The translations under genes were made by a program, and so were the position numbers. Positions 7,441 to 28,139 of a DNA stretch of 64,000 nucleotides are shown here, in pieces. Within the stretch, counting starts at the first letter, position 1; each line of letters opens with the position of its first letter. The notes beneath the pieces are model-generated. The model made no database searches and was not told the origin of the DNA. It worked only from the letters and a program-made list of their open reading frames with translations. Origin of the DNA: Escherichia coli (lineage in GTDB: Bacteria; Pseudomonadota; Gammaproteobacteria; Enterobacterales; Enterobacteriaceae); the NCBI RefSeq assembly GCF_003018235.1, contig NZ_CP027437.1; one strand, written 5' to 3'.

Positions 7441-7446
7441 GCTGAG

Positions 7447-8801: not shown

Positions 8802-8818
8802 TTTTATTCCCTTCTTAA

Positions 8819-10615
8819 TTATTTGAACATCTGTTGTGGACGGACTAACAGTGCACGATAGTGAGTCTGATTGGGTTTATCTGACAGCACGTCGATTTCC
8901 ACTTTCACTTCTTTGGTTTTGTAATCGATTTCGTTCAACTTACCGACGGTTGGCTGCCCGACATCGAACAAATGAATAGAACCACCGAAGCCAAACATGG
9001 TGTTACGGTCGGCTTGATATTCAATGATGGAGGTAATCGGGCTATAGAAATCGTAGCCACGTTCTTTACCGTATTCCCACACTTGCTGAACGGTGCCTTT
9101 CTTCTCATCAATCTTATATTCCACAAAGCGGGAGTATTTCATGGTTGGTAAGGCAGGTTGTTCCAGATGACGCCCATCGCCATTATCAAAAATGGTGAGC
9201 GTTCCTTTGCTGGAAATCCAGGCGGTATGCTGGGTGTAGGTAAAGTCGAAGTCTGAGTTTTCGCACAGGCCATTTTCGTTACAGGTAATTGGCTTACCGT
9301 TAGCATCAACCGGTTTCAGCAGCTTGCTGGCCAGCGGTTTTTCCCAACCTTTAGAGGGCGCAAGGATCCATTTCACTTGCTTATCACGACCAATTTTCAC
9401 AACACCCTGGTGGCGAGAGGAGAGGATGATTGAGTCGTCTTTTGCGTCATAGGCGATTGAGTTAACGTGCGCCCAGTTACGACCTGGCCCTACACCCAGC
9501 GCGTCGCCGAACGGTGTATCTGGTTCCAGTTTTGCCTGTTGTCCTGCATGGGCAAGGTCAACGTTAACGCAAACTGCACCTGCATCCAGCGCGCCGAGCA
9601 GTGCATCGCGTTTCGGATCGAGGATCTTGGTCAGATCCCATACATCGACAACGCGACCAGATTTATCGACTTCGAGGATATGGTCACGAATGGTGGTGAC
9701 GTGTACGCCGTCATCGCGACGATAGTTACTCTTACCTACGCGCAACAGTACCGTGCCATTTGGCATCTCAATGGACTCATGAGTAGCGTCAGCAAATCCG
9801 CGCGGTAGTTTGTGATCTTCGAGCACCTGCCCCATCATGTCGAACTCGTACCAGTGCTGACCTTGTACAGCGGTAAAGGTGCCGCGTGGCGTTTCGCGGA
9901 TACCCATCAGATAACCACGCTTGTTGATATCGCGGTCACGACCATCGTAGAAAGTGTCTTGATCCAGCCACCAGCGGTATTCACCTTCGGTATCGACGAT
10001 GAAAGTAAAGGGCGCGATATCAAAAGGTAGTGCGCCGGTTGCCGGACCCGCATCAAGGATACCGGCATTTTTATCTTTCTCACCATGCCAGTGGAGATCG
10101 GAACCTTGGGCGGTAAAGGTGTGGGTATTAACCAGATAGAGGCGATCTTCAAAACCCGGTGCGACTTTAATAACTTTGGTCTGTTGTAAATCGGAGATAG
10201 AGCGGTTATCCATGTAATTATTGACGATGGCCGAAGTGTGCACCACATAATCATCTTTCATGACCTTGCCGTTTTCTTTCCACTCAACGGTCACTTTGTT
10301 AGCAAATTTCTGATAAAGACCAAAAATCGGTACACCATCGTAAGTTTTTAGTGATTCCTGACCCACGGGATAGCTGATTTCTACGCCTTTTTCGCCCTTC
10401 CCATGGACGGTAACTTTGACGTCAGAAATAACATGGCTATCTAAGTCAACCAAAGCGGTCAGTGGTGCATTGCCGTAGGGATCGACAATGACCGCACCCA
10501 GTTGCCCGGCAGGCGGTGCGGGTTTAAAACCTGCTGCCATCACCCCCGGTGCTGACAAACCCAGAGTTATCGCCACAGCTCCGGCTACCAGAGTTTTTCT
10601 ATATTTATCAAACAT
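8819..10615 (-). CDS. assT: AssT, periplasmic arylsulfate sulfotransferase
   Basis: 598-aa ORF with signal peptide; matches the ASST family; first gene of the three-gene operon. Confidence 0.9.
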   Translation of the reverse strand: MFDKYRKTLVAGAVAITLGLSAPGVMAAGFKPAPPAGQLGAVIVDPYGNAPLTALVDLDSHVISDVKVTVHGKGEKGVEISYPVGQESLKTYDGVPIFGLYQKFANKVTVEWKENGKVMKDDYVVHTSAIVNNYMDNRSISDLQQTKVIKVAPGFEDRLYLVNTHTFTAQGSDLHWHGEKDKNAGILDAGPATGALPFDIAPFTFIVDTEGEYRWWLDQDTFYDGRDRDINKRGYLMGIRETPRGTFTAVQGQHWYEFDMMGQVLEDHKLPRGFADATHESIEMPNGTVLLRVGKSNYRRDDGVHVTTIRDHILEVDKSGRVVDVWDLTKILDPKRDALLGALDAGAVCVNVDLAHAGQQAKLEPDTPFGDALGVGPGRNWAHVNSIAYDAKDDSIILSSRHQGVVKIGRDKQVKWILAPSKGWEKPLASKLLKPVDANGKPITCNENGLCENSDFDFTYTQHTAWISSKGTLTIFDNGDGRHLEQPALPTMKYSRFVEYKIDEKKGTVQQVWEYGKERGYDFYSPITSIIEYQADRNTMFGFGGSIHLFDVGQPTVGKLNEIDYKTKEVKVEIDVLSDKPNQTHYRALLVRPQQMFK

Positions 10616-11067
10616 GGATATATCTCCTTATATAACGCAAATATATAATAATGATGAATATCGACTGTTGAGAGGGTGCTAATAAATTCGTTGCGTGAAT
10701 ATAAATATTAATTCAATAAAGAGTGAGAATGCTTTTGTGTTTCTTTTAAATATGTTGTTATCCGGTGAAACAAATATTTATGTTTAATGGATAGTAGGGG
10801 GGCAATATATCATTCACAATGTTCAATATTGTGTAGTGTGATCTCTGCAACATTGTTTTTTAATTATTAAATTTAAATCTGGTGAGATAAAAGTAAAGTA
10901 TTTAAATAATATCAATTGGTTATGTCGTGAAGTGTTCACTTACTTTAATTACAATATCGCTTGCATATGACGATTTAACATTAAATTGAATGTTAATGTT
11001 AAATAAAGGTTGGATATGTATGTGTTTATATATTGATGGGAATTATGAATGGTGGATTATAAGAGAT

Positions 11068-11090
11068 TGCCCCGCTTATCGGGGCAATAT
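11068..11090 (-). terminator. Hairpin downstream of ygiC
   Basis: Stem TTGCCCCG / CGGGGCAA with 5-nt loop just past the ygiC stop. Confidence 0.4.
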
Positions 11091-11099
11091 TAAGCTGCA

Positions 11100-12260
11100 T
11101 TATTCAACAAAAATATGCGGATAAAACCGAGACATATCCTGGGTGATCAATGCACGGTCTTCACGAATGCCAATTCCGGCAGGTTGATCGTTCACCAGCC
11201 AGCTACCAATCAGCATATAGCTGTCGCCAAATTTCGGTAACGGGTGGAATTGCTGAACAATCATCCCTTCTTCGCCATACGGACCTTCCGCTGCTTCAAT
11301 GGTTTTGCCGTTCTCAATGATCGACACGTTTGCGCCTTCACGGGAGAAGATCGGTTTAACCACATATTTTTCCATTTGCGGATGATCATCTTCCGCAAAA
11401 TAAGCGGGCAGCAGGTTCGGGTGATTCGGGAACATCTCCCACAACAGCGGTAGAAGCGCTTTGTTGGAGATAATGCTCTTCCACGCCGGTTCCAGCCAGC
11501 GTACGCCTGCATCCTCCAGCTTGGTGGAGAACATCTCACGCAGCATAAATTCCCACGGATACAGCTTGAACAGGTTAGAAATCACCTGATCTTGTAAATC
11601 CGTGAACTGACCTTTTTCGCCTAAACCGATATCGTCGATGTAGAGGAATTCAGTAGCGATTTCAGCTTCTGTCGCGCAGTCCTGCAAATACTGGATGGTT
11701 CCGCGATCTTCCACCGTGTCGCGACAGCAGGTGAGATGCAGCAACTGGAAGCCATACTGTTCACGCAACTCGACAAAGCGATCGATTAGCTTTTCTTGCA
11801 GACTGTTAAACTGGTCGCTGCCTTCCGGCAGGTTACCGGCGTTAAGCTGATCTTCCAGCCAGATCCACTGAAAGAATGCGGCTTCATACAGTGACGTTGG
11901 CGTATCGGCGTTATTTTCCAGAAGTTTAGGTTCGCCAGTACCATCCCACGCCAGATCAAGACGCGAATAAAGCGATGGCTGGTGAGTCAGCCATGACTGG
12001 CGCACAAAACTCCAGGTGTGTTTTGGAATGCGGAATTTGGTCATCAGCTCATCGCTGGCGATCACTTTTTCAACCACTTTCAGGCACATCTGGTGCAGTT
12101 CGGCGGTGACTTCTTCCAGCTTTTCAACCTGGGCGAGGGTCAACTTGTAGTAAGCATCTTCACACCAGTACGGTTCGCCGTACATGGTGTGAAAATTGAA
12201 ACCGTATTCGTGGGCTTTTTCGCGCCAGTCCGGGCGCTCGGTAATACTGACTCTTTCCAT
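11100..12260 (-). CDS. ygiC: YgiC, glutathionylspermidine synthase-like ATP-grasp protein
   Basis: 386-aa ORF matching E. coli YgiC. Confidence 0.9.
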
Positions 12261-12265
12261 CGGTA

Positions 12266-12937
12266 TCAGCCACCCATTGAACGAGAAGAGGTGCCGGTTG
12301 CGCTACGCTGCATAGTGCTTTGTTTGGCAACAGATTCACCAAAACCGCCACGAGTAACGGTGGTGGTGGTTGCCGGTTTTGGTGCCATTGCCGTCTTCGG
12401 TACGGTCATGGTGCGGCCTGGCTGGGCTGCGCCATAGTTTTTACCGGTCGCGTCGGTATATTTACCGTAAGCCGGGCTGGCCGGGTTTTTCGAGGAGAAC
12501 AGCGGCTGCTGTGCAAATCCCGCGCCGCCGCCCATCAGACGACCCATCATGTAACCGGCCATCAGCGGCATCCAGAAACTCCCGCTGGATTGCTGGGCCT
12601 GCGCCTGGTTTTCTGGTGCCATGCCAGCCTGGGCTGGTGCCTGCTGGCACTGACCTTCACCAAATTCAGCAACACAGTCTTCACGGGTGGCGTATTTCGG
12701 CGCAGTACGTTCGGCTTCTTTCAGCGCATTGTTGTACGCGGTGGTACATTCGGCGCTTTTGCCTGGGTTTGCAGCTGAACAGTCGTCAGCATTTTGATAG
12801 AGAGACACTGTTTCATCACTCTTTTCACAGCCAGCCAGCATAAAAACAGTGGCAACCGCGAGAGCGACTGGTGTCAGATGGCGTGCGCTCCAGTTTTTGC
12901 GGAACGATGCGTGGCGTATGGATTTTGTCCGTTTCAT
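12266..12937 (-). CDS. ygiB: YgiB, DUF1190 lipoprotein
   Basis: 223-aa translation from [12 protein letters not shown]... with lipobox LAGC; start at internal Met of the longer ORF. Confidence 0.85.
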
Positions 12938-13084
12938 TTTTGTCTTCCGGGACCAGTGGTAAATACCCATCAGAATAGAGGATGGCTGGTCGAAATTGAA
13001 GCGAGAAGGGGGAAGAATGCGGCAGATAACCCGTATCTTTACGTTGCCTTACGTTTAGACGGGGCCGAAGCCCCGTCGTCGTCA

Positions 13085-14566
13085 TCAGTTACGGAAAGGG
13101 TTATGACCGTTACTGGTGGTAGTGCGTGCGGATGTTTGCTGAACGACGGGTGCCGGGCTATCAGGCGCATAGCCATCAGCAATAGCATTCTGTTCCGGCG
13201 TTTGCGGGGCAACGTTTTCCGGATTAGTGGAAACCGGTTTGCTCAGCGCATTGTTCAGTGCCAGCAGATCCTGCTCGTTCAACGTACCCAGAGCTGACTT
13301 AATATTCAACTGGTTAATCAGGTAGTTATAACGCGCATTTGCCAGCTCTTGCTTAGCGTTGTACAGCGTGGTGGTCGCATCCAACACATCAACAATGGTA
13401 CGCGTACCGACCGAGTAACCCGCCTCCATCGCGTCTAATGAGCTTTGAGCGGAAACTACGGCTTGTTTGTAGGCGTTAATGCTACTGATAGAAGCATTAA
13501 TGTTGTTGAAGGAGGAACGTACGGTTTGTACGACGCTACGATGCGCGCTTTCCAGTTGCTCGCTGGCACCAACAAAGTTGTACTGGGCCTGTTTCACCTG
13601 CGAGTTAACCATTCCGCCCTGATAAATCGGCAGCGAGAAGCTCAGGCCAACTTTGTTCTGGCCCATATTGCTATCGTCATACTGGGTACCAGCGGCACCA
13701 CGGGTTTTCGAACCGCTATAAGAGGTGTCAGAAATCCCGGTAGAAGCCGTTAAATCCAGAGTCGGTAAGTGACCATCCTGCGCCTGGCGAATTTGCTCGC
13801 GTGCCAGGTCCTGGCTCAAGCGCGCCTGTAACAACGACAGGTTGCGTTTTTCGGCTTCTTTCAGCAGCGTGTTAACCGGCTGTGGTTTGTCGGTTTTAAA
13901 GTTTTCGACATTCAGCGCCGCCAGTTCCGGATAGTAGTTACCGGTGATCTGGCGCAGCTGCTCTACCGCGTTATCAAGGTTATTACGTGCGGTCACTTCG
14001 TTCGCCAGCACGGTATCGTACTGTGCGCGGGCGTTCTGCACGTCAGTGATTGCTACCAGGCCCACGTTAAAACGTTGGGTGGTTTGATCTAATTGACGGT
14101 AGATCGCTTCTTTTTGCGCCTGTGTATAGGAAAGAACGTCAATAGCATTCAACACGTTGAAATAAGCGGTCGCGGTGTTGAGGATCAAGGTTTGTTGATC
14201 GGTCTGATACGTGACGTCCTGAATCCCAGCTGCTTTTTCCTGCAGCGTTAACGCACGCCATTTCGACATATCAAAAATGGATTGAGTTAACTGCAGGGAC
14301 GCACTGGTCGCGTTAGAGTTGATGCCGTTCGCGTCGCGGTAGCCGTTGCTATAGGTGTAATCTGCACCTAAACCTAGCTGTGGCAGTAATGGACTGCGCG
14401 CTTCATTAATTTTTTCAAAGGCAGCATCACGATCGGCGGCAGACTTACGCAATTCCGGGTTACTAAGGCGTGCTTGCTGATAAACTTGCATCAGGTTCTC
14501 GGCCTGGCTCAACGAACTGAACCCAGAAAGGCTCAGGCCGATAAGAATGGGGAGCAATTTCTTCAT
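13085..14566 (-). CDS. tolC: TolC, outer membrane efflux channel
   Basis: 493-aa translation from MKKLLPILIGLSLSGFSSLSQA... matches TolC. Confidence 0.95.
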   Translation of the reverse strand: MKKLLPILIGLSLSGFSSLSQAENLMQVYQQARLSNPELRKSAADRDAAFEKINEARSPLLPQLGLGADYTYSNGYRDANGINSNATSASLQLTQSIFDMSKWRALTLQEKAAGIQDVTYQTDQQTLILNTATAYFNVLNAIDVLSYTQAQKEAIYRQLDQTTQRFNVGLVAITDVQNARAQYDTVLANEVTARNNLDNAVEQLRQITGNYYPELAALNVENFKTDKPQPVNTLLKEAEKRNLSLLQARLSQDLAREQIRQAQDGHLPTLDLTASTGISDTSYSGSKTRGAAGTQYDDSNMGQNKVGLSFSLPIYQGGMVNSQVKQAQYNFVGASEQLESAHRSVVQTVRSSFNNINASISSINAYKQAVVSAQSSLDAMEAGYSVGTRTIVDVLDATTTLYNAKQELANARYNYLINQLNIKSALGTLNEQDLLALNNALSKPVSTNPENVAPQTPEQNAIADGYAPDSPAPVVQQTSARTTTSNGHNPFRN

Positions 14567-14641
14567 TTGCATTCCTTGTGGTGAAGCAGTATTTAGCGCG
14601 ATCAAACTGTAAAATTATTGCGGATTCTAGCAGAAGCCGCT

Positions 14642-14669
14642 ACCGCAAAAGGTTGGCGTTACGTGCCAT
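14642..14669 (-). promoter_or_regulatory. Possible mar/sox/rob box in the tolC promoter region
   Basis: Minus-strand GCACGTAACGCCAACCTTTTGCGGT resembles the MarA/SoxS/Rob box (GCAC ... RYYAAAY); by-eye match only. Confidence 0.3.
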
Positions 14670-14770
14670 AGGGCGTTAATGTGCCTCAATTTAACACATG
14701 ACTGCTCAAACGGCAGTCAAACGTCGCTGAAATTCACATTTAATTCACTATTAGTGCCAGGACATTAACA

Positions 14771-15400
14771 ATGCTTAAGCCAGACAACCTGCCCGTTACA
14801 TTTGGCAAAAACGATGTAGAAATTATTGCACGAGAAACACTTTATCGCGGCTTTTTTTCATTAGATCTTTATAGATTTCGTCATCGTCTATTCAACGGGC
14901 AAATGAGTCATGAGGTACGGCGGGAAATTTTTGAGCGCGGTCACGCCGCAGTCTTGCTACCCTTTGACCCAGTGCGTGATGAAGTTGTGCTGATTGAGCA
15001 GATTCGAATTGCCGCGTACGACACTAGCGAAACCCCCTGGCTACTGGAGATGGTTGCCGGGATGATTGAAGAGGGTGAAAGTGTGGAAGATGTTGCCCGT
15101 CGCGAAGCGATTGAAGAGGCGGGGCTGATAGTCAAACGGACCAAACCGGTGTTAAGTTTCCTGGCAAGCCCGGGGGGCACCAGTGAGCGTTCGTCAATTA
15201 TGGTGGGCGAAGTGGACGCCACGACCGCAAGCGGTATTCACGGTCTGGCTGATGAAAACGAAGATATTCGCGTTCATGTGGTAAGCCGGGAACAGGCATA
15301 CCAGTGGGTAGAAGAGGGGAAAATCGACAACGCAGCGTCGGTCATCGCTTTGCAATGGCTGCAGCTGCATCATCAAGCGTTAAAAAATGAGTGGGCATAA
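14771..15400 (+). CDS. nudF: NudF, ADP-ribose pyrophosphatase
   Basis: 209-aa ORF with Nudix box, matches NudF. Confidence 0.95.
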
Positions 15401-15823
15401 ATGAAGCGTTACACACCTGACTTTCCTGAAATGATGCGCCTGTGCGAGATGAACTTTTCACAATTGCGCCGTTTGTTACCGCGCAATGACGCACCCGGCG
15501 AAACTGTAAGCTATCAGGTGGCAAACGCACAATATCGGCTGACGATTGTGGAATCGACCCGATACACTACCCTGGTGACAATAGAACAGACTGCGCCCGC
15601 GATCAGTTACTGGAGCCTTCCGTCAATGACGGTGCGTCTGTATCATGACGCGATGGTGGCTGAAGTGTGTTCAAGCCAGCAGATTTTTCGCTTCAAAGCG
15701 CGGTATGATTATCCTAATAAAAAGTTGCATCAACGCGACGAAAAGCATCAAATTAATCAGTTTCTAGCGGACTGGTTGCGATACTGTTTAGCACATGGAG
15801 CGATGGCGATTCCGGTTTACTAG
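15401..15823 (+). CDS. yqiB: YqiB, DUF1249 protein
   Basis: 140-aa ORF abutting the nudF stop. Confidence 0.85.
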
Positions 15824-15847
15824 CGTCGTGAAACCTAAGGACACCAT

Positions 15848-16675
15848 TTGGAAAGCCTGTTAACCCTTCCTCTGGCTGGTGAGGCCAGAGTCAGGATTTT
15901 ACAAATTACCGACACTCACCTGTTTGCGCAAAAGCACGAAGCCCTGTTAGGGGTAAACACCTGGGAAAGCTACCAGGCGGTGCTGGAGGCGATTCGGCCA
16001 CACCAGCACGAATTCGACCTGATTGTCGCGACAGGTGATTTAGCGCAGGATCAATCCTCTGCGGCCTATCAGCATTTCGCTGAAGGCATCGCAAGTTTTC
16101 GTGCGCCCTGCGTCTGGCTGCCGGGCAACCACGATTTCCAGCCCGCGATGTACAGCGCGTTACAGGATGCGGGTATCTCCCCGGCGAAGCGGGTGTTTAT
16201 TGGTGAGCAATGGCAAATCCTGTTGCTGGATAGCCAGGTGTTTGGCGTGCCGCACGGTGAGCTGAGCGAGTTTCAGCTTGAGTGGCTGGAACGTAAACTG
16301 GCCGATGCGCCAGAACGCCATACGTTGCTGCTGCTGCATCATCATCCGCTACCTGCAGGTTGTAGTTGGCTTGATCAACACAGCCTGCGTAACGCGGGCG
16401 AACTGGATACCGTGCTGGCGAAGTTTCCGCACGTCAAATACTTGCTGTGCGGTCATATTCATCAGGAGCTGGATCTCGACTGGAACGGTCGCCGCCTGCT
16501 GGCAACGCCGTCGACCTGTGTGCAGTTTAAGCCGCACTGTTCCAACTTTACGCTGGACACCATCGCGCCCGGCTGGCGTACTCTCGAGTTACATGCTGAT
16601 GGCACGCTGACCACCGAGGTGCATCGCCTGGCGGACACACGTTTCCAACCTGATACCGCTTCAGAAGGCTACTGA
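15848..16675 (+). CDS. cpdA: CpdA, 3',5'-cAMP phosphodiesterase
   Basis: 275-aa ORF matching CpdA; starts at TTG. Confidence 0.9.
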
Positions 16676-17256
16676 TGTCTACGCTTCTTTATTTACACGG
16701 TTTCAACAGCTCGCCGCGCTCTGCAAAAGCGAGCTTGTTAAAAAACTGGTTGGCGGAACATCACCCTGACGTAGAGATGATCATTCCGCAGTTGCCGCCG
16801 TATCCTTCCGATGCGGCAGAACTGCTGGAATCCATTGTCCTGGAACATGGCGGCGATTCGCTGGGTATTGTCGGTTCGTCACTGGGGGGATATTACGCCA
16901 CCTGGTTGTCGCAATGTTTTATGCTGCCCGCAGTGGTGGTCAACCCGGCGGTGCGCCCGTTTGAACTGCTGACGGACTATCTCGGTCAGAACGAGAACCC
17001 CTACACCGGGCAGCAATATGTGCTAGAGTCACGCCATATTTACGATCTCAAAGTCATGCAGATTGACCCGCTGGAAGCGCCGGATTTGATCTGGCTGCTG
17101 CAACAGACGGGAGATGAAGTGCTGGATTACCGCCAGGCGGTGGCGTACTACGCTTCCTGCCGCCAGACTGTCATAGAAGGCGGCAACCACGCATTCACGG
17201 GCTTCGAAGATTATTTCAACCCGATCGTCGATTTTCTTGGTCTGCACCATCTCTGA
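16675..17256 (+). CDS. yqiA: YqiA, esterase
   Basis: 193-aa alpha/beta hydrolase; start overlaps the cpdA stop by 1 nt. Confidence 0.9.
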
Positions 17257-17281
17257 CGATCAACTCGAATTGCTAACTTAA

Positions 17282-19177
<1,896 letters not shown>

Positions 19178-19206
19178 TAATCCTCCCGCCAGAAGAATAA
19201 AACATA

Positions 19207-19238
19207 GCCCGGTATACAAGTGTATACCGGGCTTTTTT
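19207..19238. terminator. Rho-independent terminator after parE, shared with the convergent receptor gene
   Basis: Stem GCCCGGTATAC / GTATACCGGGC followed by TTTTTT. Confidence 0.7.
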
Positions 19239-19240
19239 GA

Positions 19241-21382
19241 TCAAAATTCCATTTTCACCGTGAATTGCACTTCACGCGGATCGCCAATCTGATTCCCCAG
19301 ATTATTTGTGGCGATGGAAGAGGTGTAATACGTTTTATCAAACAGGTTTTTGACGTTTAATTGCAGTGTGACCGGATACTGCAATTTCATTTTGTATGCG
19401 GCGAAGGCATCGGCAACGAAATAGCCTGGCAGATAATAGTCAGCCCCATTGGTTGCCGAACGACGGCTTACGCCATGTCCACCACCGCCAAACGTCAGTG
19501 TGTTATTGCCTGGCATGTTATGAATGTCATAGGTCAGGAATAGCGAACCGGTATGACGAGGAACATTCGGCAATGGTTTCCCTGCATAATCAGGATCCTC
19601 CAGAACCTTAGCATCGGTATAGCCGTAGCTGGCAATGATATTAATGTTTTCAGTTAATGCTCCCGCAAGGTCGACTTCTACCCCTCTTGAACGAACGCGG
19701 CCTGCCGTTTTGGCGATGGTTTCATCACCAATACTTTCGGTATACAACACGTTACGTTTATGGATATCAAACAGCGCAATATCTGCGGTTATACCATCGA
19801 ACAGCTCGAATTTTGCCCCGACTTCGTAAGCATTAGATGATTCCGGTGGAAGATCGCCAATGTAGCTGGCAATTGACGATTGCGGCATAAATGTTTGCGA
19901 ATAATTAGCAAATAAGGATACCGATGGCGTCAGTTTGTAGACTAACCCCAGTTTGGGCGTCCATTGTTCATCGCGGCTGTCAGTATTGACATTAAAAGGA
20001 CGGCCTTTACCCGCATACTGCGTGTAATACTGATAGCGGATCCCGGCGACGGCAATCCAGTTATCGGTCAGATAGAGTGCGTCCTGTGCATACGCTGAGT
20101 AGCTCTCCTGTTTGATCGTCTGATCACTGTCCGACGCCGAAACCGTTGTACATTTGCTGGTATTACCATAAACAGGGTTGTAGATATTGAAATCTTTAGC
20201 TTTTTTACAGCGAATCATATCTGTGCGCAGAAGATCATAATATTCATATGACACCCCACCCAGAATCTCATTATAGAACCCAGCAATATCAACATTCCCT
20301 TGCAGATCCGCACGAGTAGAATGCATACGCTGGGTAGATCCCTGAGTTGCATCAACACGCCGTGTCAGCGTTCCTGTCGTTGCATCATACGCGGTAACGC
20401 GAGCCTGATTGTCGCTGTATTTATCCTGGCTGTAGCTGTAATCAAAGCGCGCTGTCCACTGGCTATTGAGATGATATTCTGCGTTGAGTTGCGCCAGATC
20501 GGACTGACCATCTGTAATATTAAACGGTTCGTCAAAACGTATTTTTCGATCAACGTTTACGGGCTGTTTCGTCGTAAGGTCGAAAATCGTTCCACGATCG
20601 AACGGAGTTTTATAGTCCCGATGGGAATAGAGCATAGTTACTGTTGCATTATCACCAAACCAGGTGAGTGACGGGGCAATAAATGTACTGCGCTCTTTAC
20701 CGAAGTTTCGCCAGTAATCTTCATCCTGCACTTCCCCCGTCAGGCGGTATGCCAGCTGAGTGCCTTCAATGGGACCTGTGATATCAAGTTGCCCAGTGCC
20801 TCCGCCAAAACTGGAGGAGGTGGCTGAAACCGAACCATGGAATGTTTTTTCCGGGCGCTTGGTCACGACGTTAATCAGTCCACCAGGATCGAGAATGCCA
20901 TACAGCGTGGAGGCCGGACCTTTTAGCACTTCCACACGTTCTGTGGCGGCGTTGAAACTGCGAGGAAGTACAGTTCGCAGGCCGTTGGTCATGATGGAGC
21001 CATCCCGGTTAGCACCAAACCCACGACGTACAAAGGCGTCCTGAGTTCCGCCTAATGTATTGGTCTGTACCACGTTACTGACGTTATAAAGCGCTTCATC
21101 CAGCGTCGTCGCATTCTGATTTTCCAGAACCTGATCGCTAACCGTATTGACCACCTGCGGGATATCCAACATCGGCATATCGGTTAATGTCGCCGTGGAA
21201 GTGCTCAGAGGTTGATAACCATCGGTCGCCTCAGTTGCGGTATTTGCATCCGCTGTAACAGTGATTGTTTCGCCATCTTTGGTCGTTGCAGTGTCGGTTG
21301 CATGAATCATTGGTGCTGCAAAGAGCAGTGAAAAGAGCGCCCGACCTTTGATTCCTGAGAATGAAGGTGTGAACTTAGCCAT
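19241..21382 (-). CDS. TonB-dependent outer membrane receptor (siderophore/metal-chelate type)
   Basis: 713-aa ORF; signal peptide; TonB-box-like ETITVTA; plug plus beta-barrel; C-terminal aromatic residue (…KMEF). Confidence 0.9.
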   Translation of the reverse strand: MAKFTPSFSGIKGRALFSLLFAAPMIHATDTATTKDGETITVTADANTATEATDGYQPLSTSTATLTDMPMLDIPQVVNTVSDQVLENQNATTLDEALYNVSNVVQTNTLGGTQDAFVRRGFGANRDGSIMTNGLRTVLPRSFNAATERVEVLKGPASTLYGILDPGGLINVVTKRPEKTFHGSVSATSSSFGGGTGQLDITGPIEGTQLAYRLTGEVQDEDYWRNFGKERSTFIAPSLTWFGDNATVTMLYSHRDYKTPFDRGTIFDLTTKQPVNVDRKIRFDEPFNITDGQSDLAQLNAEYHLNSQWTARFDYSYSQDKYSDNQARVTAYDATTGTLTRRVDATQGSTQRMHSTRADLQGNVDIAGFYNEILGGVSYEYYDLLRTDMIRCKKAKDFNIYNPVYGNTSKCTTVSASDSDQTIKQESYSAYAQDALYLTDNWIAVAGIRYQYYTQYAGKGRPFNVNTDSRDEQWTPKLGLVYKLTPSVSLFANYSQTFMPQSSIASYIGDLPPESSNAYEVGAKFELFDGITADIALFDIHKRNVLYTESIGDETIAKTAGRVRSRGVEVDLAGALTENINIIASYGYTDAKVLEDPDYAGKPLPNVPRHTGSLFLTYDIHNMPGNNTLTFGGGGHGVSRRSATNGADYYLPGYFVADAFAAYKMKLQYPVTLQLNVKNLFDKTYYTSSIATNNLGNQIGDPREVQFTVKMEF

Positions 21383-21481
21383 TTAGTCTGTTATCCCAAA
21401 AACTCACGGATTGTCGTGAGTGAAAATTGTTTCTTGTTGCTCACTAAGCACTATCCGTTTGTTATTTCACCATCGGATATG

Positions 21482-21500
21482 TAATTGAGAATCATTCAAC
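21482..21500. promoter_or_regulatory. Fur-box-like site in the divergent receptor/ABC promoter region
   Basis: TAATTGAGAATCATTCAAC; core TGAGAATCATT matches Fur consensus TGATAATCATT at 10 of 11 positions. Confidence 0.4.
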
Positions 21501-21755
21501 CATGCGGTGATGTAGTAGTAAATGAGAAATAACAAAAAATTGCTACATGTGTTTTTATGAGAGGTTAATGCAATTCAATTGATGGTAATTTATTAATATT
21601 TAATGGTTTTATTTTTATCTTTAAAAATATTTCACCTGTTATTTACCTTGTTTTTGTATGGCTTTTAACTTCTTGACTACTACATTTTGTGGCGTCAAAC
21701 TCTCAAAGGAGAATGAGTTTTATTTTTGTTTGTCTTTGATTAAGTTGGCGTACAC

Positions 21756-22565
21756 GTGGCACATAACGCAAAAGGGCAGGGGCTGATCCTCGACAATGTT
21801 TCTGCCGGGTATCACACGAAAATCATTGTTGATGGCGTTTCTTTCTCCGTTCCCACAGAAAAAATGACCGTTCTGGTTGGGGCAAACGGCTGTGGAAAGT
21901 CGACGTTGCTCAGCACCATTGCACGTATCTTGCAACCTATGGGCGGCTCGATATTGCTGGATGGTAAAGCGATTCACGAGCAACCAACGAAAGCGTTATC
22001 CCGTAGACTTGGGATCTTGCCGCAGTCGCCATTATTGCCGGAGGGCTTAACCGTTTATGAACTGGTGTCGCGTGGGCGTTTTCCCTGGCAGAATTTCATT
22101 CGTCAATGGAGCGACGCCGACGAGCAGGCGGTAGAAGAGGCCCTGAAATTAACCGGTACGCAGGAGTTTGCACATTTACCTGTTGAAAAACTTTCTGGTG
22201 GGCAGCGCCAGCGTTGCTGGATTGCGATGGTGTTGGCGCAAAAGACGCCTTATATCCTGCTGGATGAACCCACAACCTGGCTTGATTTACGTTATCAGGT
22301 TGAAATTCTTGAGTTATTACATGATTTAACGCGTCATCACGGGCGTACAGTCGTCGTGGTGTTGCATGATCTGAATTTTGCCGTCAATTATGGTGATACG
22401 TTGATATTTTTACGCCAGGGGAAAGTGGTGCGTGTGTTGAATGAGGGGGAGCATTGCACGCCTGAGCTGGTAAAAGCTGTCTTTGACGTTGATGTTCACG
22501 CATCAATAAATCCTCTGACGGGAAAGCCGTTCTTCATGCCGTTTCGTGGTGTAGAAAAAGTATGA
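21756..22565 (+). CDS. ABC transporter ATP-binding protein (FepC/FecE-like)
   Basis: Walker A GANGCGKST, signature LSGGQRQR, Walker B ILLDEPT, H-loop; GTG start. Confidence 0.85.
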   Translation: MAHNAKGQGLILDNVSAGYHTKIIVDGVSFSVPTEKMTVLVGANGCGKSTLLSTIARILQPMGGSILLDGKAIHEQPTKALSRRLGILPQSPLLPEGLTVYELVSRGRFPWQNFIRQWSDADEQAVEEALKLTGTQEFAHLPVEKLSGGQRQRCWIAMVLAQKTPYILLDEPTTWLDLRYQVEILELLHDLTRHHGRTVVVVLHDLNFAVNYGDTLIFLRQGKVVRVLNEGEHCTPELVKAVFDVDVHASINPLTGKPFFMPFRGVEKV

Positions 22566-23545
22566 TGCGCACAGGGCTGGTTACTGTAATTTTCCTCGCC
22601 TTACTGCTGGTGGGATGCGTGGTATATCCAGGGATTGGTGCCCGATTTATTGCACCACAAACGGTGTTGCAGGCATTTCTTCATTTTGAACCGCAAAACT
22701 TCGATCACAACGTAATTGTAAGACTCCGTTTGCCGCGTTTAGCGGCAGCATTGCTTACCGGTGCTTCTCTTGGAGTTGCTGGTGCTTTGTTGCAGGCTGT
22801 CATTCGTAACCCATTGGGGGAGCCACATATTTTAGGCTTAAATGCCGGAGCCGCTCTTGCTGTCGTTGCTGCCAGTGCGCTTGGGCTGGCCTTTCCGGTT
22901 GGACGCCCACTGCTGGCATCTACGGGCGGCGCGTTATTGTTCCTGTTGATATTGCTGCTTTCCTCCGCAGGGCGTTCAGGGTTAACGCCAATGAAAGTTA
23001 CTTTATGCGGCGTGGCGCTATCGGCGTTCGTGTCCTCAATAACGGCTGCAATCCTGATTCTTGACGAACAAACACTGCTGGCGATGCGGACATGGCTAGC
23101 AGGTGATTTAGCGGGGCAGGATTGGGCGACGCTGGGTACGTCCGCCTGGTTTTCTCTGGGGGGGGTTGTGTTAGCCATTTACCTTGCGCCCTCTCTTAAC
23201 ATGTTGGCACTGGGTGATCGCATGGCGCAGGGGCTGGGCGTCTCGGTACTCCGCACGCGAACATTCACTCTGCTTGCGATCGCGTTGCTCTGTGGCGCAG
23301 CCGTATCGATTGCTGGCCCCATTGGTTTTGTCGGTCTGCTAGTACCGCAGATTGTCAGGCGTCTGGTATCTGCGGATCTGCGCGTTCTGCTCCCTCTTTC
23401 AGCTTGTGTCGGTGCCTTACTGCTATTACTGGCAGATATTATTGCCCGGACGCTTTTCACGCCCCATGAGCTGGCGACCGGTGTCATGACGGCGTTAGTT
23501 GGTGCGCCCGTTTTTGTCATTATGGCGACGAGGATGTTCAAATGA
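22562..23545 (+). CDS. ABC transporter permease, FecCD family
   Basis: 327-aa multi-TM ORF; start overlaps the ATPase stop. Confidence 0.85.
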   Translation: MMRTGLVTVIFLALLLVGCVVYPGIGARFIAPQTVLQAFLHFEPQNFDHNVIVRLRLPRLAAALLTGASLGVAGALLQAVIRNPLGEPHILGLNAGAALAVVAASALGLAFPVGRPLLASTGGALLFLLILLLSSAGRSGLTPMKVTLCGVALSAFVSSITAAILILDEQTLLAMRTWLAGDLAGQDWATLGTSAWFSLGGVVLAIYLAPSLNMLALGDRMAQGLGVSVLRTRTFTLLAIALLCGAAVSIAGPIGFVGLLVPQIVRRLVSADLRVLLPLSACVGALLLLLADIIARTLFTPHELATGVMTALVGAPVFVIMATRMFK

Positions 23546-24591
23546 GTCGGATAATGAACGTCGGGCTACGTCCACTACGTGTTGGTAAGTTTTCGACACT
23601 GGTACGCCCTAAAAATCTGGTGTTGCTTGGTGGGCTGTTTCTGTTTGCGGTTGGAATACTGATATTCGGTCTGATGCATGGTTCTTTTTCTGTCCCAGCA
23701 TCGGAAGTAGGACGAGCGTTGTTTGCTCCAGAAAACGTAAGCACAGACGCACGTTATATTGTGCAGGATATTCGCTTGCCGAGAGTCATCATGGCATTGC
23801 TATGCGGAGCCATGTTAGGTATGGCGGGGGCCGCGATGCAATCCATTGCGCGTAACGGCCTTGCCGATCCTGGTTTAATCGGCGTCAAAGAAGGATGTAG
23901 CGTGGCGGTGCTGTGGCTGATTTTCCAGTTTCCAATGCTGGGAATGTTCTGGCGTCCAGTGGCTGGTCTTGCTGGTGGCTTGTTGGTGGCTTTAATCGTG
24001 ATTTTTTGTGCGCGCGATATTTCCCGCCCGCGATTTGTTCTGATTGGTATTGGTGTTTCCTGGTTTTTCGCCGCCGGTATCGGTGTATTTATGACCACTG
24101 CAGATGTTCGAGATGTACAAACTGCATTGATGTGGTTATCGGGAAGCCTGCATGCAGCTAACTGGATGTTAGTCGGTATTTCAGCCTGTTGGATGTTGCC
24201 AGCCGCTCTTTTATTGCTGTTCACCGCCAGGACGGCAGATATCGCTCTGCTTGGTCATCAGGTTGCAACCGGGTTAGGGGTGAATAGTTCTCGTCTGGCG
24301 TTGTTACGTGTCGCCGCACCAATAATCCTGACCGCCGTCTGCGTTTCGTGTGTTGGTAACATCGGTTTTGTCGGATTGATAGCACCCCATATATCACGTT
24401 TTATTCTACGTGGCGGGCAGACGACATTACTGCTGGGGAGCGCCGTATCGGGGGCGTTGTTAGTCATCCTGGCGGATAGCATTGGTCGTTTGGCTTTTTT
24501 GCCTTTGCAACTGCCTGCCGGAATCATTATTTCATTGATTGGTGGACCATTCTTTTTGCTACTGCTCTGGCAGCGCAGGAACAGTTTTTAA
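23542..24591 (+). CDS. ABC transporter permease, FecCD family (second)
   Basis: 349-aa multi-TM ORF; start overlaps the previous stop. Confidence 0.85.
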   Translation: MSRIMNVGLRPLRVGKFSTLVRPKNLVLLGGLFLFAVGILIFGLMHGSFSVPASEVGRALFAPENVSTDARYIVQDIRLPRVIMALLCGAMLGMAGAAMQSIARNGLADPGLIGVKEGCSVAVLWLIFQFPMLGMFWRPVAGLAGGLLVALIVIFCARDISRPRFVLIGIGVSWFFAAGIGVFMTTADVRDVQTALMWLSGSLHAANWMLVGISACWMLPAALLLLFTARTADIALLGHQVATGLGVNSSRLALLRVAAPIILTAVCVSCVGNIGFVGLIAPHISRFILRGGQTTLLLGSAVSGALLVILADSIGRLAFLPLQLPAGIIISLIGGPFFLLLLWQRRNSF

Positions 24592-24601: not shown

Positions 24602-25549
24602 ATGCGTTTATTTTTTTCTCTGCTGATACTGTTGTCATTCTTTGCCCGAGCGACAGAACCTGTTCAGGTCTTTACTGATGATTTAGGGCGCAAAGTCACT
24701 GTTCCTGCTCATCCAAAGAGAATTGTCTCTTTACACGATCTTGATATCACTATTCCTCTGATTGAGCTCGGTGTACCTCCTGTCGCCAGCCACGGGCGAA
24801 CCCGGCCTGACGGTAGCCATTTCATTCGATCAGGCGCGTTATTGACAGGTGTCGACTTTGATAATTCATCGATCGCTTTTATTGGCACCGCTGATATTGA
24901 TATTGAAGCGATTGTGGCGGCAAAGCCTGACCTGATCATCACAGAACCGACCCGTAATACGCCCATTGAACAACTGGAAAAAATTGCGCCCACGGTGAGC
25001 ATTGATCATCTCAAAGGAGGCGCGCCAGAAATCTACCGCAAGCTGGCAGAACTTACAGGAACGCAGTCGCAGCTGGCGATACTTGAACGCCGCTATCAGG
25101 CACAAATCAATGCGCTGAAGGCGACGCTGGACAGCCAAAAAATAACGGTATCGGTGATTCAGGCAAATCAGGGAAAAATTAATGTGATGCATAGCTATCA
25201 TTCGCTGGGGCGGGTATTACGCGATGCTGGTTTTCGCTTTCCGCCGCTGATTGAGAGCATTCCTGAAGGTGGGCGAATGGGTGTGAGCGCAGAGCGTTTA
25301 CCTGAACTGGATGCCGATTTTGTTTTTGCAACCTGGCGCGGTGACACCGGTGGTAAACCTCAGGATGAGCTGGCAGCAATGGAAAAAGTCATGCCGGGAT
25401 GGTGTCAGTTTCTGACGGCCTGTCGTTCCGGGCGCTATGTGCTGATTTCTCGTGAAGAGGCGATTTCTAACTCCTTTGCATCTCTGGGGCTGATGGCTGC
25501 GCAGATACAATCACAAATTGCGGGACGACCTCTACCGGAGGCTAAATGA
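24602..25549 (+). CDS. Periplasmic substrate-binding protein (siderophore/cobalamin-type)
   Basis: 315 aa from MRLFFSLLILLSFFARA with signal peptide; GGAG RBS 4 nt upstream of ATG 24602. Confidence 0.8.
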   Translation: MRLFFSLLILLSFFARATEPVQVFTDDLGRKVTVPAHPKRIVSLHDLDITIPLIELGVPPVASHGRTRPDGSHFIRSGALLTGVDFDNSSIAFIGTADIDIEAIVAAKPDLIITEPTRNTPIEQLEKIAPTVSIDHLKGGAPEIYRKLAELTGTQSQLAILERRYQAQINALKATLDSQKITVSVIQANQGKINVMHSYHSLGRVLRDAGFRFPPLIESIPEGGRMGVSAERLPELDADFVFATWRGDTGGKPQDELAAMEKVMPGWCQFLTACRSGRYVLISREEAISNSFASLGLMAAQIQSQIAGRPLPEAK

Positions 25550-26433
25550 TCCAGAAAGACAAAACGCGGGTTGATATTTATGGTGAGTGTTTTCGCACTC
25601 GCGCGAGTCAGTTAACGCCTGGGTTAAGAGCTGTCGCAAGCTACATTAATGAGCATCGTGAAGTGGTACTCGAGCAAACGGCGATGGAAATTGCGGCCAC
25701 GTTGAACACTTCCGATGCCACAGTTATCAGGGCTATACAGGCTCTGGGGTTTGCCGGGCTGCGTGATCTGAAACGCACACTGGAACAGTGGCTTGGTCCA
25801 GCCCTTAGTTCCAGCGAAAAGATGTCTACGACGGTGAGTAACTTGACGTGCGATGTTAACACCGCAATCGACTTTGTTCTTGAAGGGCATTTGTATACTT
25901 GTAATGTCCTGTCAGAGCCTGAAAACCGCCACGCGCTTGAGCAAGCTGTAGCGTTGTTGGTGCAGGCACGGCAAGTCGCTATTTTTGGCATTGGCGCTTC
26001 GGGTATCCTGGCGGACTATACCGCACGACTATTCAACCGCATAGGTTTGCCTGCCACGGCACTAAACCGTACGGGTATTGGCCTTGCCGAGCAACTGATC
26101 GCGCTTCAACGTGGCGATGTTCTGATCATGATGGCGCAAAAATCTGCGCACCGGGAAGGGCTGACAACGCTTCGTGAGGCGAGGCGGCTGGGGATCCCTG
26201 TTATTTTGCTGACAAACGCGCTGGATTCACGTTTTAGCAAAGACGCCAGTATCGTGATTCATGTTCCGCGCGGGGATGAAAAGGGGAAAACGCCACTACA
26301 TGGTACGGTATTGTTGTGTCTGGAAATGATTGTCTGGTCGGTAGCTTCCGCAGTGCCGCAGCGTGCGGTTAAAACCATTAAGCGAATTAACGATTTCCAT
26401 CGAGGACTGAAAACGGGAAGAAAGAATGGCTAA
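25546..26433 (+). CDS. RpiR/MurR-family transcriptional regulator (N-terminal HTH, C-terminal SIS phosphosugar-binding domain)
   Basis: 295-aa ORF; HTH region then SIS-like VAIFGIGASG...; ATGA overlap with the binding-protein stop. Confidence 0.8.
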   Translation: MIQKDKTRVDIYGECFRTRASQLTPGLRAVASYINEHREVVLEQTAMEIAATLNTSDATVIRAIQALGFAGLRDLKRTLEQWLGPALSSSEKMSTTVSNLTCDVNTAIDFVLEGHLYTCNVLSEPENRHALEQAVALLVQARQVAIFGIGASGILADYTARLFNRIGLPATALNRTGIGLAEQLIALQRGDVLIMMAQKSAHREGLTTLREARRLGIPVILLTNALDSRFSKDASIVIHVPRGDEKGKTPLHGTVLLCLEMIVWSVASAVPQRAVKTIKRINDFHRGLKTGRKNG

Positions 26434-26441: not shown

Positions 26442-26470
26442 GAGACCGGTAGCAGCACCGGCCTCTTTTC
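26442..26470 (+). terminator. Terminator after the island operon
   Basis: Stem GAGACCGGT / ACCGGCCTC (one mismatch) followed by TTTT. Confidence 0.45.
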
Positions 26471-26477
26471 AGGAATG

Positions 26478-27404: not shown

Positions 27405-27463
27405 TTTTTAACCTCAAGGTGAGACGTTTGTCGACTATAGTACGTCACAGAGCGGTACGGTGA

Positions 27464-27496
27464 AATTAGCAAAATGTGCAAAGTCTTTTGCTAATT
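27464..27496. promoter_or_regulatory. Perfect 11-bp inverted repeat upstream of mdaB, candidate operator
   Basis: AATTAGCAAAA-(11 bp)-TTTTGCTAATT, then direct repeat TAGCAAAAGTC; 60-90 bp upstream of the mdaB start. Confidence 0.3.
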
Positions 27497-27761
27497 TAGC
27501 AAAAGTCTGATCTTGCTCTGACTCACCGATGCAGGATAAATATTTTCTGAAAATGACAATACTGATAGCAATTTCTCATCATTCCAACTAGCACAGGGTT
27601 AATTTACAACGTTGGTGTGGACTTTCTGCGAGTTGATAATTGTGGTGTTGAATAACTAAAAATGAAAATATCAGCGTGTTACGCAGATTATTTTAAATAG
27701 ATTTACTGGAGGGTATCGAAAACCAGATCTCCGACTGGACTTTTTTAGAGAGTGCTAACAT

Positions 27762-28091
27762 ATGTTAAAGCATAAAATTCAAACAATATTTGAAGCTCTG
27801 TTATATATAATGCTTACTTATTGGTTAATAGATGCTTTTTTTGCTTTCAATAAGTATGACTGGATGCTTGAGTCGGGAGACAATATTTACAGTATACCTT
27901 CCGTTTCAGGCGAAGATCGTATATTGCAAGCAATGATTGCAGCATTTTTTCTTTTGACGCCACTTATTATTCTTATCTTAAGAAAACTCTTTATGCGGGA
28001 AATGTTCGAGTTTTGGCTATATGTATTCACGCTCGTTATTTGTTTGGTTTGTGGTTGGTGGCTTTTTTGGGGTCGGTTTATATTTTGCTAA
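27762..28091 (+). CDS. ygiZ: YgiZ, inner membrane protein
   Basis: 109-aa ORF with three predicted TM helices in the position of K-12 ygiZ. Confidence 0.7.
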   Translation: MLKHKIQTIFEALLYIMLTYWLIDAFFAFNKYDWMLESGDNIYSIPSVSGEDRILQAMIAAFFLLTPLIILILRKLFMREMFEFWLYVFTLVICLVCGWWLFWGRFIFC

Positions 28092-28139
28092 TAGTAAAAT
28101 CTATGAGAGTCGTTTTAACGGCTCTCATAGACAGAGAAG

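Follow-up and report, generated by a model that had tools for sequence, protein, structure and literature searches.

The RpiR-family regulator FitR of the Escherichia coli fit siderophore-uptake locus: a candidate operator and the question of its ligand

Introduction

The AraC-type proteins PchR, YbtA and AlcR, together with FecIR, are dedicated, locus-specific regulators that act on top of Fur. With this extra layer, production of an uptake system is confined to times when the siderophore it imports is present. For the fit system of Escherichia coli, the earlier description is reportedly that of Ouyang and Isaacson in Infect Immun in 2006.

The regulator of the fit system, FitR, was characterized by Ouyang and Isaacson in 2008 (Open Microbiol J; PMC2593036), who already described its HTH and SIS domains. 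In that work, FitR repressed fitA and fitBCDER about 2–5-fold, and repression was seen in LB without added inducer, cofactor or iron. FitR was found to be an autorepressor that shifts fitA–fitB intergenic DNA in gels, and its action is independent of Fur and additive with it (PMC2593036). The pairing of an SIS/HTH regulator with a siderophore operon is therefore already known, having been published in 2006–2008, and finding it again is no new biology by itself.

This report considers a fit locus in a window of E. coli DNA, meaning the whole stretch that was analyzed (64,000 nucleotides). To the published description of FitR (PMC2593036) it adds a proposed operator, proposed Fur sites and a narrowed effector. 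Two of the results are new here: the candidate operator, and a second genomic architecture in which the same regulator accompanies a different receptor.

The fit locus and its terminal gene

The fit island (fitA, fitBCDE and fitR) sits between parE and ygiN, and its six genes follow the published order: a divergent TonB receptor, then the ATPase, two permeases, the binding protein and the regulator (Table 1). All 17 of the published fit primers (Table 2 of PMC2593036) find their targets in the expected genes and in the right order, with 0–3 mismatches. FitA scores 374 bits against TIGR01783 (cutoff 223.5), and its nearest solved structures are FetA, FoxA, CntO and FhuA (~1e-48). FitE matches PDB 3BE5/3BE6 (E 2e-194), the second of which carries the name Ec-FitE in PMC10553834. 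FitA, FitE and FitR all score below cutoff against the NCBIfam equivalog models, so the substrate class of Fit is not assignable by family membership. The system is present in 1870 of 5426 complete E. coli genomes (about one-third), ST131 and O157:H7 strains included, and PMC9409007 puts it forward as a marker for adherent-invasive strains of the species.

The 295-aa product of the last gene is labeled a MurR/RpiR family transcriptional regulator in RefSeq (WP_000614954.1). The earlier note on this DNA, made from the letters alone, had taken it for an HTH plus SIS-domain protein encoded by the last gene of an ABC operon, and both points hold. A Pfam search places HTH_6 (PF01418) at residues 17–81 (E 1.6e-9) and SIS (PF01380) at residues 138–247 (E 1.3e-13), and the full-length sequence matches the solved RpiR regulators RccR (8K3B) and NanR (4IVN) at E ~1e-15. 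Structure prediction confirms the RpiR fold: the AlphaFold (AF2) model has a pLDDT of 90.8, and a Foldseek search with it returns RccR, NanR, 3SHO and MurR on top, with probability 1.00. The start codon of the gene overlaps the stop codon of the upstream Peripla_BP_2 gene fitE by 4 bp (ATGA, 25546–25549), which makes it the final gene of the ABC operon, and GGAGG lies 5 nt upstream of the start. This arrangement shows fitR closing the operon, translationally coupled to fitE.

The gene is very probably fitR, the dedicated autorepressor of the E. coli fit ferric-siderophore uptake island. It agrees with the published FitR in the gene itself, the primers, the six-gene order, the HTH and SIS domains, repression of its own locus and intergenic binding. 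The published work used strain i484 (O25) and the window is from another E. coli, with no difference in kind. That the regulator acts on its own locus, as had been supposed, is borne out by the published repression of fitA and fitB and the shift of intergenic DNA; the accompanying idea that the locus is an exception to control by Fur does not stand, given the published fur-mutant data (PMC2593036).

Table 1. Features of the fit locus, in window coordinates
Feature	Position	Strand	Basis or remark
fitA, TonB-dependent siderophore receptor, 713 aa	19241..21382	-	ORF, TIGR01783, published qPCR primers
Fur-box-like block GTAATTGAGAATCATTCAA	21481..21499		overlaps inferred -10 (TTGAAT, minus strand, 21494-21499) of fitA promoter
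Candidate FitR operator copy A, TTTACTACTACA	21511..21522	-	overlaps inferred -35 (TTTACT) of fitA promoter
Candidate FitR operator copy B, TTGACTACTACA	21673..21684	+	overlaps inferred -35 (TTGACT) of fitBCDER promoter
Second Fur-box-like block GAGAATGAGTTTTATTTTT	21709..21727		upstream of fitB
fitB, ABC ATPase, 269 aa, GTG start	21756..22565	+	ORF, RefSeq, profile, published primers
fitC, FecCD-family permease	22562..23545	+	ORF, RefSeq, profile, published primers
fitD, FecCD-family permease, RefSeq start	23554..24591	+	RefSeq, profile, published primers
fitE, periplasmic siderophore-binding protein (Peripla_BP_2), RefSeq start	24602..25549	+	PDB match, published primers
fitR, RpiR/MurR-family repressor (HTH_6 + SIS)	25546..26433	+	ORF, profile and structure matches, published characterization (PMC2593036)
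Terminator-like hairpin CCGGTAGCAGCACCGG with T-rich tail	26446..26471	+	between convergent fitR and ygiN; consensus scan only

Two architectures across the Enterobacterales

The six-gene cassette also occurs in Kosakonia, Erwinia, Raoultella, Serratia and Sodalis, where its flanks differ. In 57 of the best 80 species genomes fitBCDE lies upstream of the regulator, and in a further 22 the regulator is divergent from another TonB receptor (type 2). This second architecture, found in Pantoea, Erwinia, Serratia and Rahnella, pairs the same regulator with a different TonB receptor. In a GC-rich genome (locus L009), a regulator with 44% identity is still the last gene of a receptor/ABC operon. The comparison shows the regulator and a siderophore-uptake module to be conserved together across the Enterobacterales.

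Four more distant relatives have varied contexts that are uninformative on the ligand: P0124 stands alone as an orphan, BOF/HupE-UreJ genes neighbor P0137, and P0130 and P0146 are in other contexts.

Candidate FitR and Fur sites between fitA and fitB

The candidate operator, TT(G/T)ACTACTACA, is present in two inverted copies (A and B), the only two matches to the 12-mer in the 64-kb window, where 0.31 are expected. Both copies are invariant in an intergenic alignment of seven genera that is otherwise 51% identical, and each adjoins a Fur-like box, at both of the divergent promoters. Copy A falls within the published EMSA probe (window 21404–21762). The exact 9-mer ACTACTACA occurs at least twice in 51 of 53 type-1 promoters and at least once in 21 of 22 type-2 promoters. 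With 2.78 per kb in promoter windows versus 0.0076 per kb elsewhere, it is enriched about 370-fold; the orthologous promoters share descent, so this figure does not represent independent occurrences. The 9-mer pair also flanks regulators that are 44% (L009) and 41% (L012) identical, and the second of these loci has no iron genes. On the protein side, the recognition helix TSDATV(I/V)RAxQALGF is kept over the whole clade. Conservation lends strong support to TT(G/T)ACTACTACA as the candidate FitR operator.

Characterized RpiR operators are near-palindromes (PMC12713135), and the candidate has no clear dyad symmetry. A TTGAC...GTCAA repeat at 21673–21698 was considered as an operator dyad and rejected; it is not conserved outside E. 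coli, in the other genera.

The Fur-like block at 21481–21499 is invariant in the seven genera, with further occurrences in the GC-rich locus L009 and by the different receptor in Pantoea (L081). For the block at 21709–21727, a core of GAATGAG..TTATTTTT.TTT is conserved in the seven genera. The 19-bp Fur consensus GATAATGATAATCATTATC is matched at 12/19 positions by the first block and at 12–13/19 by the second, against 115 matches at 12/19 in the window; scoring against the consensus was rejected as stand-alone evidence, the fit boxes not being separable from the window background. A Fur function for the block at 21481–21499 is instead suggested by its conservation together with the published fur-mutant data (PMC2593036).

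An alternative that we consider unlikely is that TT(G/T)ACTACTACA represents unusually conserved promoter elements (a -35 hexamer with its spacer) or a site for some other protein, and that FitR binds elsewhere, for example at the TGTAAT-containing block here called a Fur box. HexR-type operators do carry TGTAAT half-sites, the match of that block to the Fur consensus is weak, and the proposed FitR motif is not palindromic. The first six bases of the motif resemble TTGACA, and with a -35-like hexamer forming part of it, its conservation could in part be that of a promoter. A sigma-70 consensus scan found no promoter at threshold in 21300–21800, and the -35/-10 hexamers inferred at the fit promoters match the consensus at 8 of 12 positions. 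However, the six bases past the -35 hexamer are also invariant over the seven genera. In addition, the distal copy in L009 retains ACTACTACA even though its TTG/TTT prefix is missing and there is no divergent gene for it to face, and the motif accompanies the regulator into the L012 context, away from iron genes.

The SIS pocket and what it might bind

In RccR the phosphate of the effector is held by S139, S183, S185 and S188, and in SpNanR by S135, S179, S181 and T184 (PMC12713135 for the latter). In the alignment with FitR, the first of these hydroxyls is kept as S152 and the other three positions are occupied by A197, K199 and H202. The canonical S-x-S-x-x-S/T loop is thus absent, and only the Ser of the G-x-G-x-S loop is retained. 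In its place FitR has QKSxHRE, which is kept in 78 of 80 orthologs (the best 80 species genomes), and the S-x-S-G-x-S/T loop was found in none of 97 full-length relatives at 27–50% identity. Across both architectures, 105 FitR positions are at least 95% conserved, including S152, R161, R165, H202, R242 and H252.

From the SIS domain the earlier note had reasoned to a phosphosugar or amino-sugar ligand and on to a sugar-containing transported substrate. On this view FitR, like MurR, NanR, RccR and HexR, would be a sensor of phosphosugars or amino-sugar phosphates, and fit expression would be tied to carbon status or to a chelate that bears sugar, for instance a glycosylated siderophore. We regard this as quite improbable. 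FitR does have a true SIS fold, and all four of the structurally characterized RpiR effectors are phosphorylated carbohydrates (PMC12713135). The retained S152 of the first phosphate loop and the basic residues of the pocket could still bind phosphate. Against this, three of the four hydroxyls are replaced, and equivalent mutants of characterized proteins are unresponsive to effector: the response was lost in the SpNanR S179A/S181A/T184A triple mutant (PMC12713135) and in the RccR quadruple serine mutant.

The genomic surroundings also bear on the sugar idea. Directly 3' of fitR in L003, L004 and L006 lies a beta-glucoside operon (two GH1 genes, PTS IIA-IIC-IIB and LacI), but it has its own LacI regulator, and the E. 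coli, Kosakonia, Raoultella and Sodalis loci lack it. No gene for a sugar kinase, isomerase or glycosidase was found as a constant neighbor of the cassette across the genera examined, and the cassette itself is without a sugar kinase, isomerase or deacetylase gene. A phosphorylated or other anionic ligand could still be accommodated, which leaves the sugar idea without support but not disproved.

Only a small chance is given to the view that FitR has no small-molecule effector and is a constitutive negative-feedback damper, with the SIS domain used for oligomerization only. Being made from the operon it represses, as the autoregulated last gene, FitR would cap Fit expression after Fur derepression; the repression is only 2–5-fold without added cofactor or iron, the literature names no FitR ligand, and the canonical phosphate loop is lost, but an unused cavity is hard to reconcile with a pocket lining that is at least 95% conserved over 80 species in both architectures (the lineage-specific Q198, S200, H202 and E204 and the basic R161, R165, R242 and H252 included), and in the type-2 loci transcription of the regulator starts at a divergent promoter of its own instead of coming from the transporter operon. 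A literature search for other links between RpiR proteins and siderophores gave nothing relevant.

Proposed mechanism and wider reading

In the preferred reading, FitR is a repressor with a working sensor domain. FitR, probably a tetramer like other RpiR proteins, would bind both candidate operator copies, and at these positions overlapping the -35 regions of the divergent promoters it would occlude RNA polymerase. Occlusion could possibly involve bridging of the two sites, and RpiR tetramers that bridge two DNA sites have been described (PMC12713135). Fur would bind the Fur-like boxes beside the FitR sites, and full expression of the operon would require both low iron and the release of FitR. 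The releasing signal is proposed to be a small anionic molecule in a remodeled SIS pocket lined by S152, R161, R165, K199, H202, R203, R242 and H252. The likeliest candidate would be an imported xenosiderophore or its product (substrate induction) and not a canonical phosphosugar; this is the weakest step of the scheme.

A wider reading is put forward tentatively, as a possibility more than an expectation. FitR would belong to a large RpiR subclade that has lost phosphosugar sensing. In the Enterobacterales it would have been co-opted to sense, in the cytoplasm, an anionic xenosiderophore of the hydroxamate or carboxylate type after its import, or a product of it. Acting through the two inverted ACTACTACA sites, it would form with Fur a "low iron AND siderophore present" gate that controls two or more TonB-receptor modules unrelated to each other. 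The subclade may be marked by the helix TSDATVxRAxQALGF, loss of the S-x-S-G-x-S/T loop, and conserved PRG and LHG motifs. An operator to mutate, pocket residues to mutate and the case against phosphosugars could serve as handles toward identifying the Fit substrate.

Comparison with known regulators

The best full-length matches to FitR in both sequence and fold are RccR and HexR of Pseudomonas (PDB 8K3B and 8JU9), which are KDPG-responsive repressors. They share with FitR the HTH_6 plus SIS architecture and repressor action, and the RccR residues R152 and H148, ligand contacts contributed by the neighboring subunit, align with the invariant R165 and R161 of FitR. Identity between RccR and FitR is ~23%, and S183, S185 and S188 of RccR correspond to A197, K199 and H202 of FitR. 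Their targets differ as well, with RccR acting on carbon metabolism and FitR on iron uptake.

The amino-sugar-phosphate sensors NanR (Vibrio vulnificus 4IVN; Streptococcus pneumoniae 9DQN) and MurR (E. coli 7EN5) have the fold and domain order of FitR. Their tetramers are able to bridge a pair of DNA sites, as is proposed here for FitR and its two operator copies. While NanR and MurR have an S-x-S-x-x-T phosphate loop and recognize 18-bp near-palindromes, FitR has QKSxHRE and a candidate site without a clear dyad.

For the SIS domain alone, the best fold match is an RpiR-family SIS domain from Sphaerobacter thermophilus solved by structural genomics (PDB 3SHO; TM 0.83–0.85, rmsd 2.4–3.0 Å). 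Like FitR, it is without the S-x-S-G loop, and it has SVWRYLRD at that position. Its identity to FitR is only ~23%, and 3SHO has no known genomic link to iron uptake.

The functional parallel is with PchR, YbtA, AlcR and FecIR, the dedicated regulators of other siderophore systems, although for FitR siderophore sensing is a proposal only. Those regulators are activators or sigma/anti-sigma pairs with unrelated folds, whereas FitR is a repressor with an SIS sensor domain.

The fit locus and its regulator

The gene at issue is fitR, which is translationally coupled to fitE and comes last in a FecCD-type ABC operon divergent from a siderophore receptor gene. This reading rests on the overlap of its ATG with the fitE TGA, a GGAGG just 5' of its start, the domains of its product, and the terminator-like hairpin beyond it. 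The earlier note had proposed, from sequence alone, an HTH-plus-SIS regulator at the end of the ABC operon, and a Pfam search bears this out: residues 17-81 match HTH_6 (E 1.6e-9) and residues 138-247 match SIS (E 1.3e-13). In a PDB sequence search, the full-length protein matches RccR (8K3B/8JU9) and V. vulnificus NanR (4IVN) at about 1e-15. An AlphaFold2 model from 50 homologues (mean pLDDT 90.8) agrees at the level of the fold, with RccR, NanR, SpNanR, 3SHO, and MurR as top Foldseek matches. The divergent fitA gene specifies a siderophore receptor of the TonB-dependent kind, whose TIGR01783 score of 374 bits exceeds the cutoff of 223.5.

Ouyang & Isaacson described this locus as the fit system, so an RpiR-type regulator on this operon is already known. 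All 17 published fit primers (Table 2, PMC2593036) map in the window with 0-3 mismatches, in the expected genes and order, and the fitE product matches PDB 3BE5/3BE6 (E 2e-194), of which 3BE6 is named Ec-FitE in PMC10553834. In the 2008 work, over-expression of fitR led to repression, a fitR mutant was derepressed and could be complemented, and FitR specifically shifted a 347-bp fitA-fitB intergenic fragment (PMC2593036). Of the earlier interpretation, action of the regulator on its own locus therefore stands; the locus as an exception to Fur control does not, as Fur controls fit too (PMC2593036), and the sugar-linked ligand lacks support. Enterobactin is not a fit substrate (2018; PMC5907654). 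What the analysis adds is a testable candidate operator, a list of pocket residues, and a second receptor architecture.

Features of the window and of related loci retrieved for comparison
Sequence	Feature	Position	Strand	Remark
Window	SIB RNA	686-836	+	Rfam gathering threshold
Window	FMN riboswitch	4302-4450	+	5' of ribB; Rfam gathering threshold
Window	Published EMSA probe	21404-21762		includes both 12-mer copies
Window	Invariant block 1	21479-21522		ATGTAATTGAGAATCATTCAA, 11-12 partly conserved bases, TGTAGTAGTAAA
Window	Invariant block 2	21673-21684		TTGACTACTACA; further downstream, GAATGAG..TTATTTTT.TTT
Window	fitR ORF	25546-26433	+	295 aa
Window	fitE/fitR overlap	25546-25549		ATGA
Window	pBAD-fitR1 forward primer	25603-25620		starts at ORF codon 20
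Window	Terminator-like hairpin	26446-26461		downstream of fitR
Window	ygiZ region	27405-28139
Window	ES173 sRNA	42466-42529	-	Rfam gathering threshold
L002 (Kosakonia)	HicA/HicB toxin-antitoxin pair	10891-11536		immediately 3' of fitR
L003	PepSY_TM protein, two PstS-like (PBP_like_2) proteins	7007-10004		between fitE and fitR
L003	Beta-glucoside operon	11226-17553		Erwinia- or Serratia-type locus
L004	Beta-glucoside operon	13032-19525		Erwinia- or Serratia-type locus
L006	Beta-glucoside operon	11221-17667		Erwinia- or Serratia-type locus
L009	PBP_like_2 protein, unannotated 334-aa protein	7010-8946		between binding protein and regulator
L011	FitR-like regulator outside iron-uptake locus	8355-9798		loop KSKHHEG; adjoins BOF (YgiW-like) gene and HupE/UreJ-type metal transporter gene
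L012	Distant FitR-like regulator outside iron-uptake loci	698-1872		Rrf2 regulator adjoins
L015 (E. coli K_EC180)	IS200C transposase between parE and fitA	18672-21382		swine isolate; fitA annotated as frameshifted
L081 (Pantoea agglomerans)	Second architecture	7400-10870		21 more such loci among L050-L095

The window is E. coli chromosomal DNA; its genes run tolC, nudF, yqiB, cpdA, yqiA, parE, a 7.3-kb insert, ygiN, mdaB, ygiZ, qseC, qseB ... parC, and 1870 of 5426 complete E. coli genomes carry fitR. For the ygiZ region, identity lies at 90-95 % in exactly 3555 complete E. coli genomes, equal to the count without fitR (5425 minus 1870), and reaches 95 % or more in about 1867. As these counts mirror the presence and absence of fitR, the fit-positive haplotype seems to extend into the adjoining mdaB-qseC region. 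The transposase and frameshifted fitA of the swine isolate point to an island decaying in some strains. Given the position of its forward primer, the published complementing clone pBAD-fitR1 restores repression without the first 19 residues of FitR; these are poorly conserved, and the model has low pLDDT at residues 1-10.

The cassette across species

Scanning a single genome from each species turned up a FitR relative in 544 genomes. The best 80 of these 544 share 65-98 % identity and all belong to the Enterobacterales. Among them, fitBCDE lies directly upstream on the same strand in 57 (type 1), the regulator diverges from a different TonB receptor with fitBCDE absent in 22 (type 2), and one shows neither arrangement. 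Coupling of regulator and transporter is a fixed feature: the fitA/fitBCDE-fitR cassette occurs with unrelated flanks in Kosakonia, Erwinia, Raoultella, Serratia, and Sodalis, and in a GC-rich genome (L009) a regulator of 44 % identity still ends a receptor/ABC/binding-protein operon.

The type-2 arrangement is found in Pantoea, some Erwinia, Serratia, and Rahnella. Its receptor is only 35-39 % identical to FitA, while its regulators are 65-73 % identical to FitR and keep the same pocket loop; no fixed amino-acid difference between type-1 and type-2 regulators was found among the best 80 of 544 species. In the single type-2 locus looked at, L081, a FhuD-like binding protein is encoded downstream of the receptor. 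Additional genes can separate regulator and transporter, as in L003, where the PepSY_TM membrane protein is possibly a ferric-siderophore reductase, and in L009; in L051 and L053, fitE and fitR are 3 kb apart.

Candidate FitR operators

A promoter scan of the fitA-fitB intergenic region reported no promoter. The fitA promoter would have a -35 TTTACT and a -10 TTGAAT separated by 17 bp, with a Fur-like box overlapping the -10, and the fitB promoter a -35 TTGACT and a -10 CAAACT at the same spacing. These hexamer assignments are weak, and the Fur-like boxes match 12-13 of 19 consensus positions, which is not above background.

Across seven genera, the intergenic alignment has a mean column identity of 51 % and two invariant blocks. 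TGTAGTAGTAAA reads as TTTACTACTACA on the opposite strand, which places one and the same 12-mer, pointing outward, at each of the two divergent promoters; the 64-kb window holds only these two copies, against 0.31 expected by chance. Among the loci of the best 80 of 544 species, exact copies of ACTACTACA number two or more in 51 of 53 type-1 promoters and one or more in 21 of 22 type-2 promoters, counts in which orthologous promoters are related by descent. Promoter windows contain ACTACTACA at 2.78 per kb, against 0.0076 per kb, the chance rate, elsewhere. Type-2 loci retain the same Fur-like box and TGTAGTAGTAAA on the receptor side, with shorter copies (TTGACTACA / TTTACTACA) on the regulator side.

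The 12-mer copies are probably FitR sites and represent candidate operators. That they are something else is doubtful, although the 12-mer is no obvious palindrome. The motif goes with the regulator and not with the iron genes. At L012, where no iron genes are nearby, three ACTACTACA copies surround a regulator of 41 % identity, and each of them precedes a gene. At L009, two inverted copies lie 5' of a co-directional operon, the distal one without a -35-like prefix and facing no divergent gene. Another related locus, L013, has a one-mismatch copy upstream of a neighbouring binding-protein gene, and the recognition helix TSDATV(I/V)RAxQALGF is kept across the whole regulator clade. RpiR proteins are tetramers able to bridge two DNA sites (RccR work; PMC12713135), and two copies 124-188 bp apart would fit such bridging.

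The sensor pocket and its possible signal

In the best-supported model, two independent repressors would act on one bidirectional promoter, with Fur reporting iron status and FitR, made from its own operon, reporting something other than iron. Induction of fit by its substrate, an imported xenosiderophore or its product, is tentatively favored. FitA lies about as far from FetA as from FoxA, CntO, and FhuA, the nearest matches of FitE, YfiY and FhuD, reach only 1e-15 to 1e-13, and no NCBIfam equivalog model reaches its cutoff for FitA, FitE, or FitR, so that no one substrate class stands out.

That FitR senses a phosphosugar or carbon status, as the earlier note suggested, is quite unlikely. 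The phosphate loop shows high conservation in the RpiR family, and each of the four characterised effectors is a phosphosugar (PMC12713135). RccR holds the KDPG phosphate with S139, S183, S185, and S188, and mutating all four abolishes its response; the SpNanR equivalents are S135, S179, S181, and T184, and a triple mutant loses binding (PMC12713135). FitR has S152, A197, K199, and H202 at these positions in a phmmer alignment, so that three of the four phosphate-binding hydroxyls are replaced and the pocket chemistry differs from the standard loop. No sugar-metabolism gene was found as a constant neighbour across the loci compared. A beta-glucoside operon (two GH1, PTS IIA-IIC-IIB, and its own LacI) lies directly 3' of fitR in three loci only, whose upstream flanks differ despite the common operon, and the loci of E. 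coli, Kosakonia, Raoultella, and Sodalis lack it; the operon's position may reflect shared synteny and not a functional link.

The FitR loop M-(A/G)-Q-K-S-x-H-R-E-G does not vary among 11 orthologues, and 78 of the best 80 of 544 species have it. Residues at least 95 % conserved in both architectures include S152, R161, R165, Q198, S200, H202, E204, R242, and H252, a level of conservation that marks the cavity as under selection, with a different and rather basic chemistry. An improbable alternative, FitR as a ligand-free feedback damper, would leave this conserved cavity unused. The pocket is compatible with an anionic ligand. Among 97 full-length relatives at 27-50 % identity, not one has the canonical phosphate loop, and most carry LAY-GxxYxE plus PRG and LHG motifs. 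In having a noncanonical phosphate loop, the FitR relatives resemble 3SHO, a structural-genomics protein.
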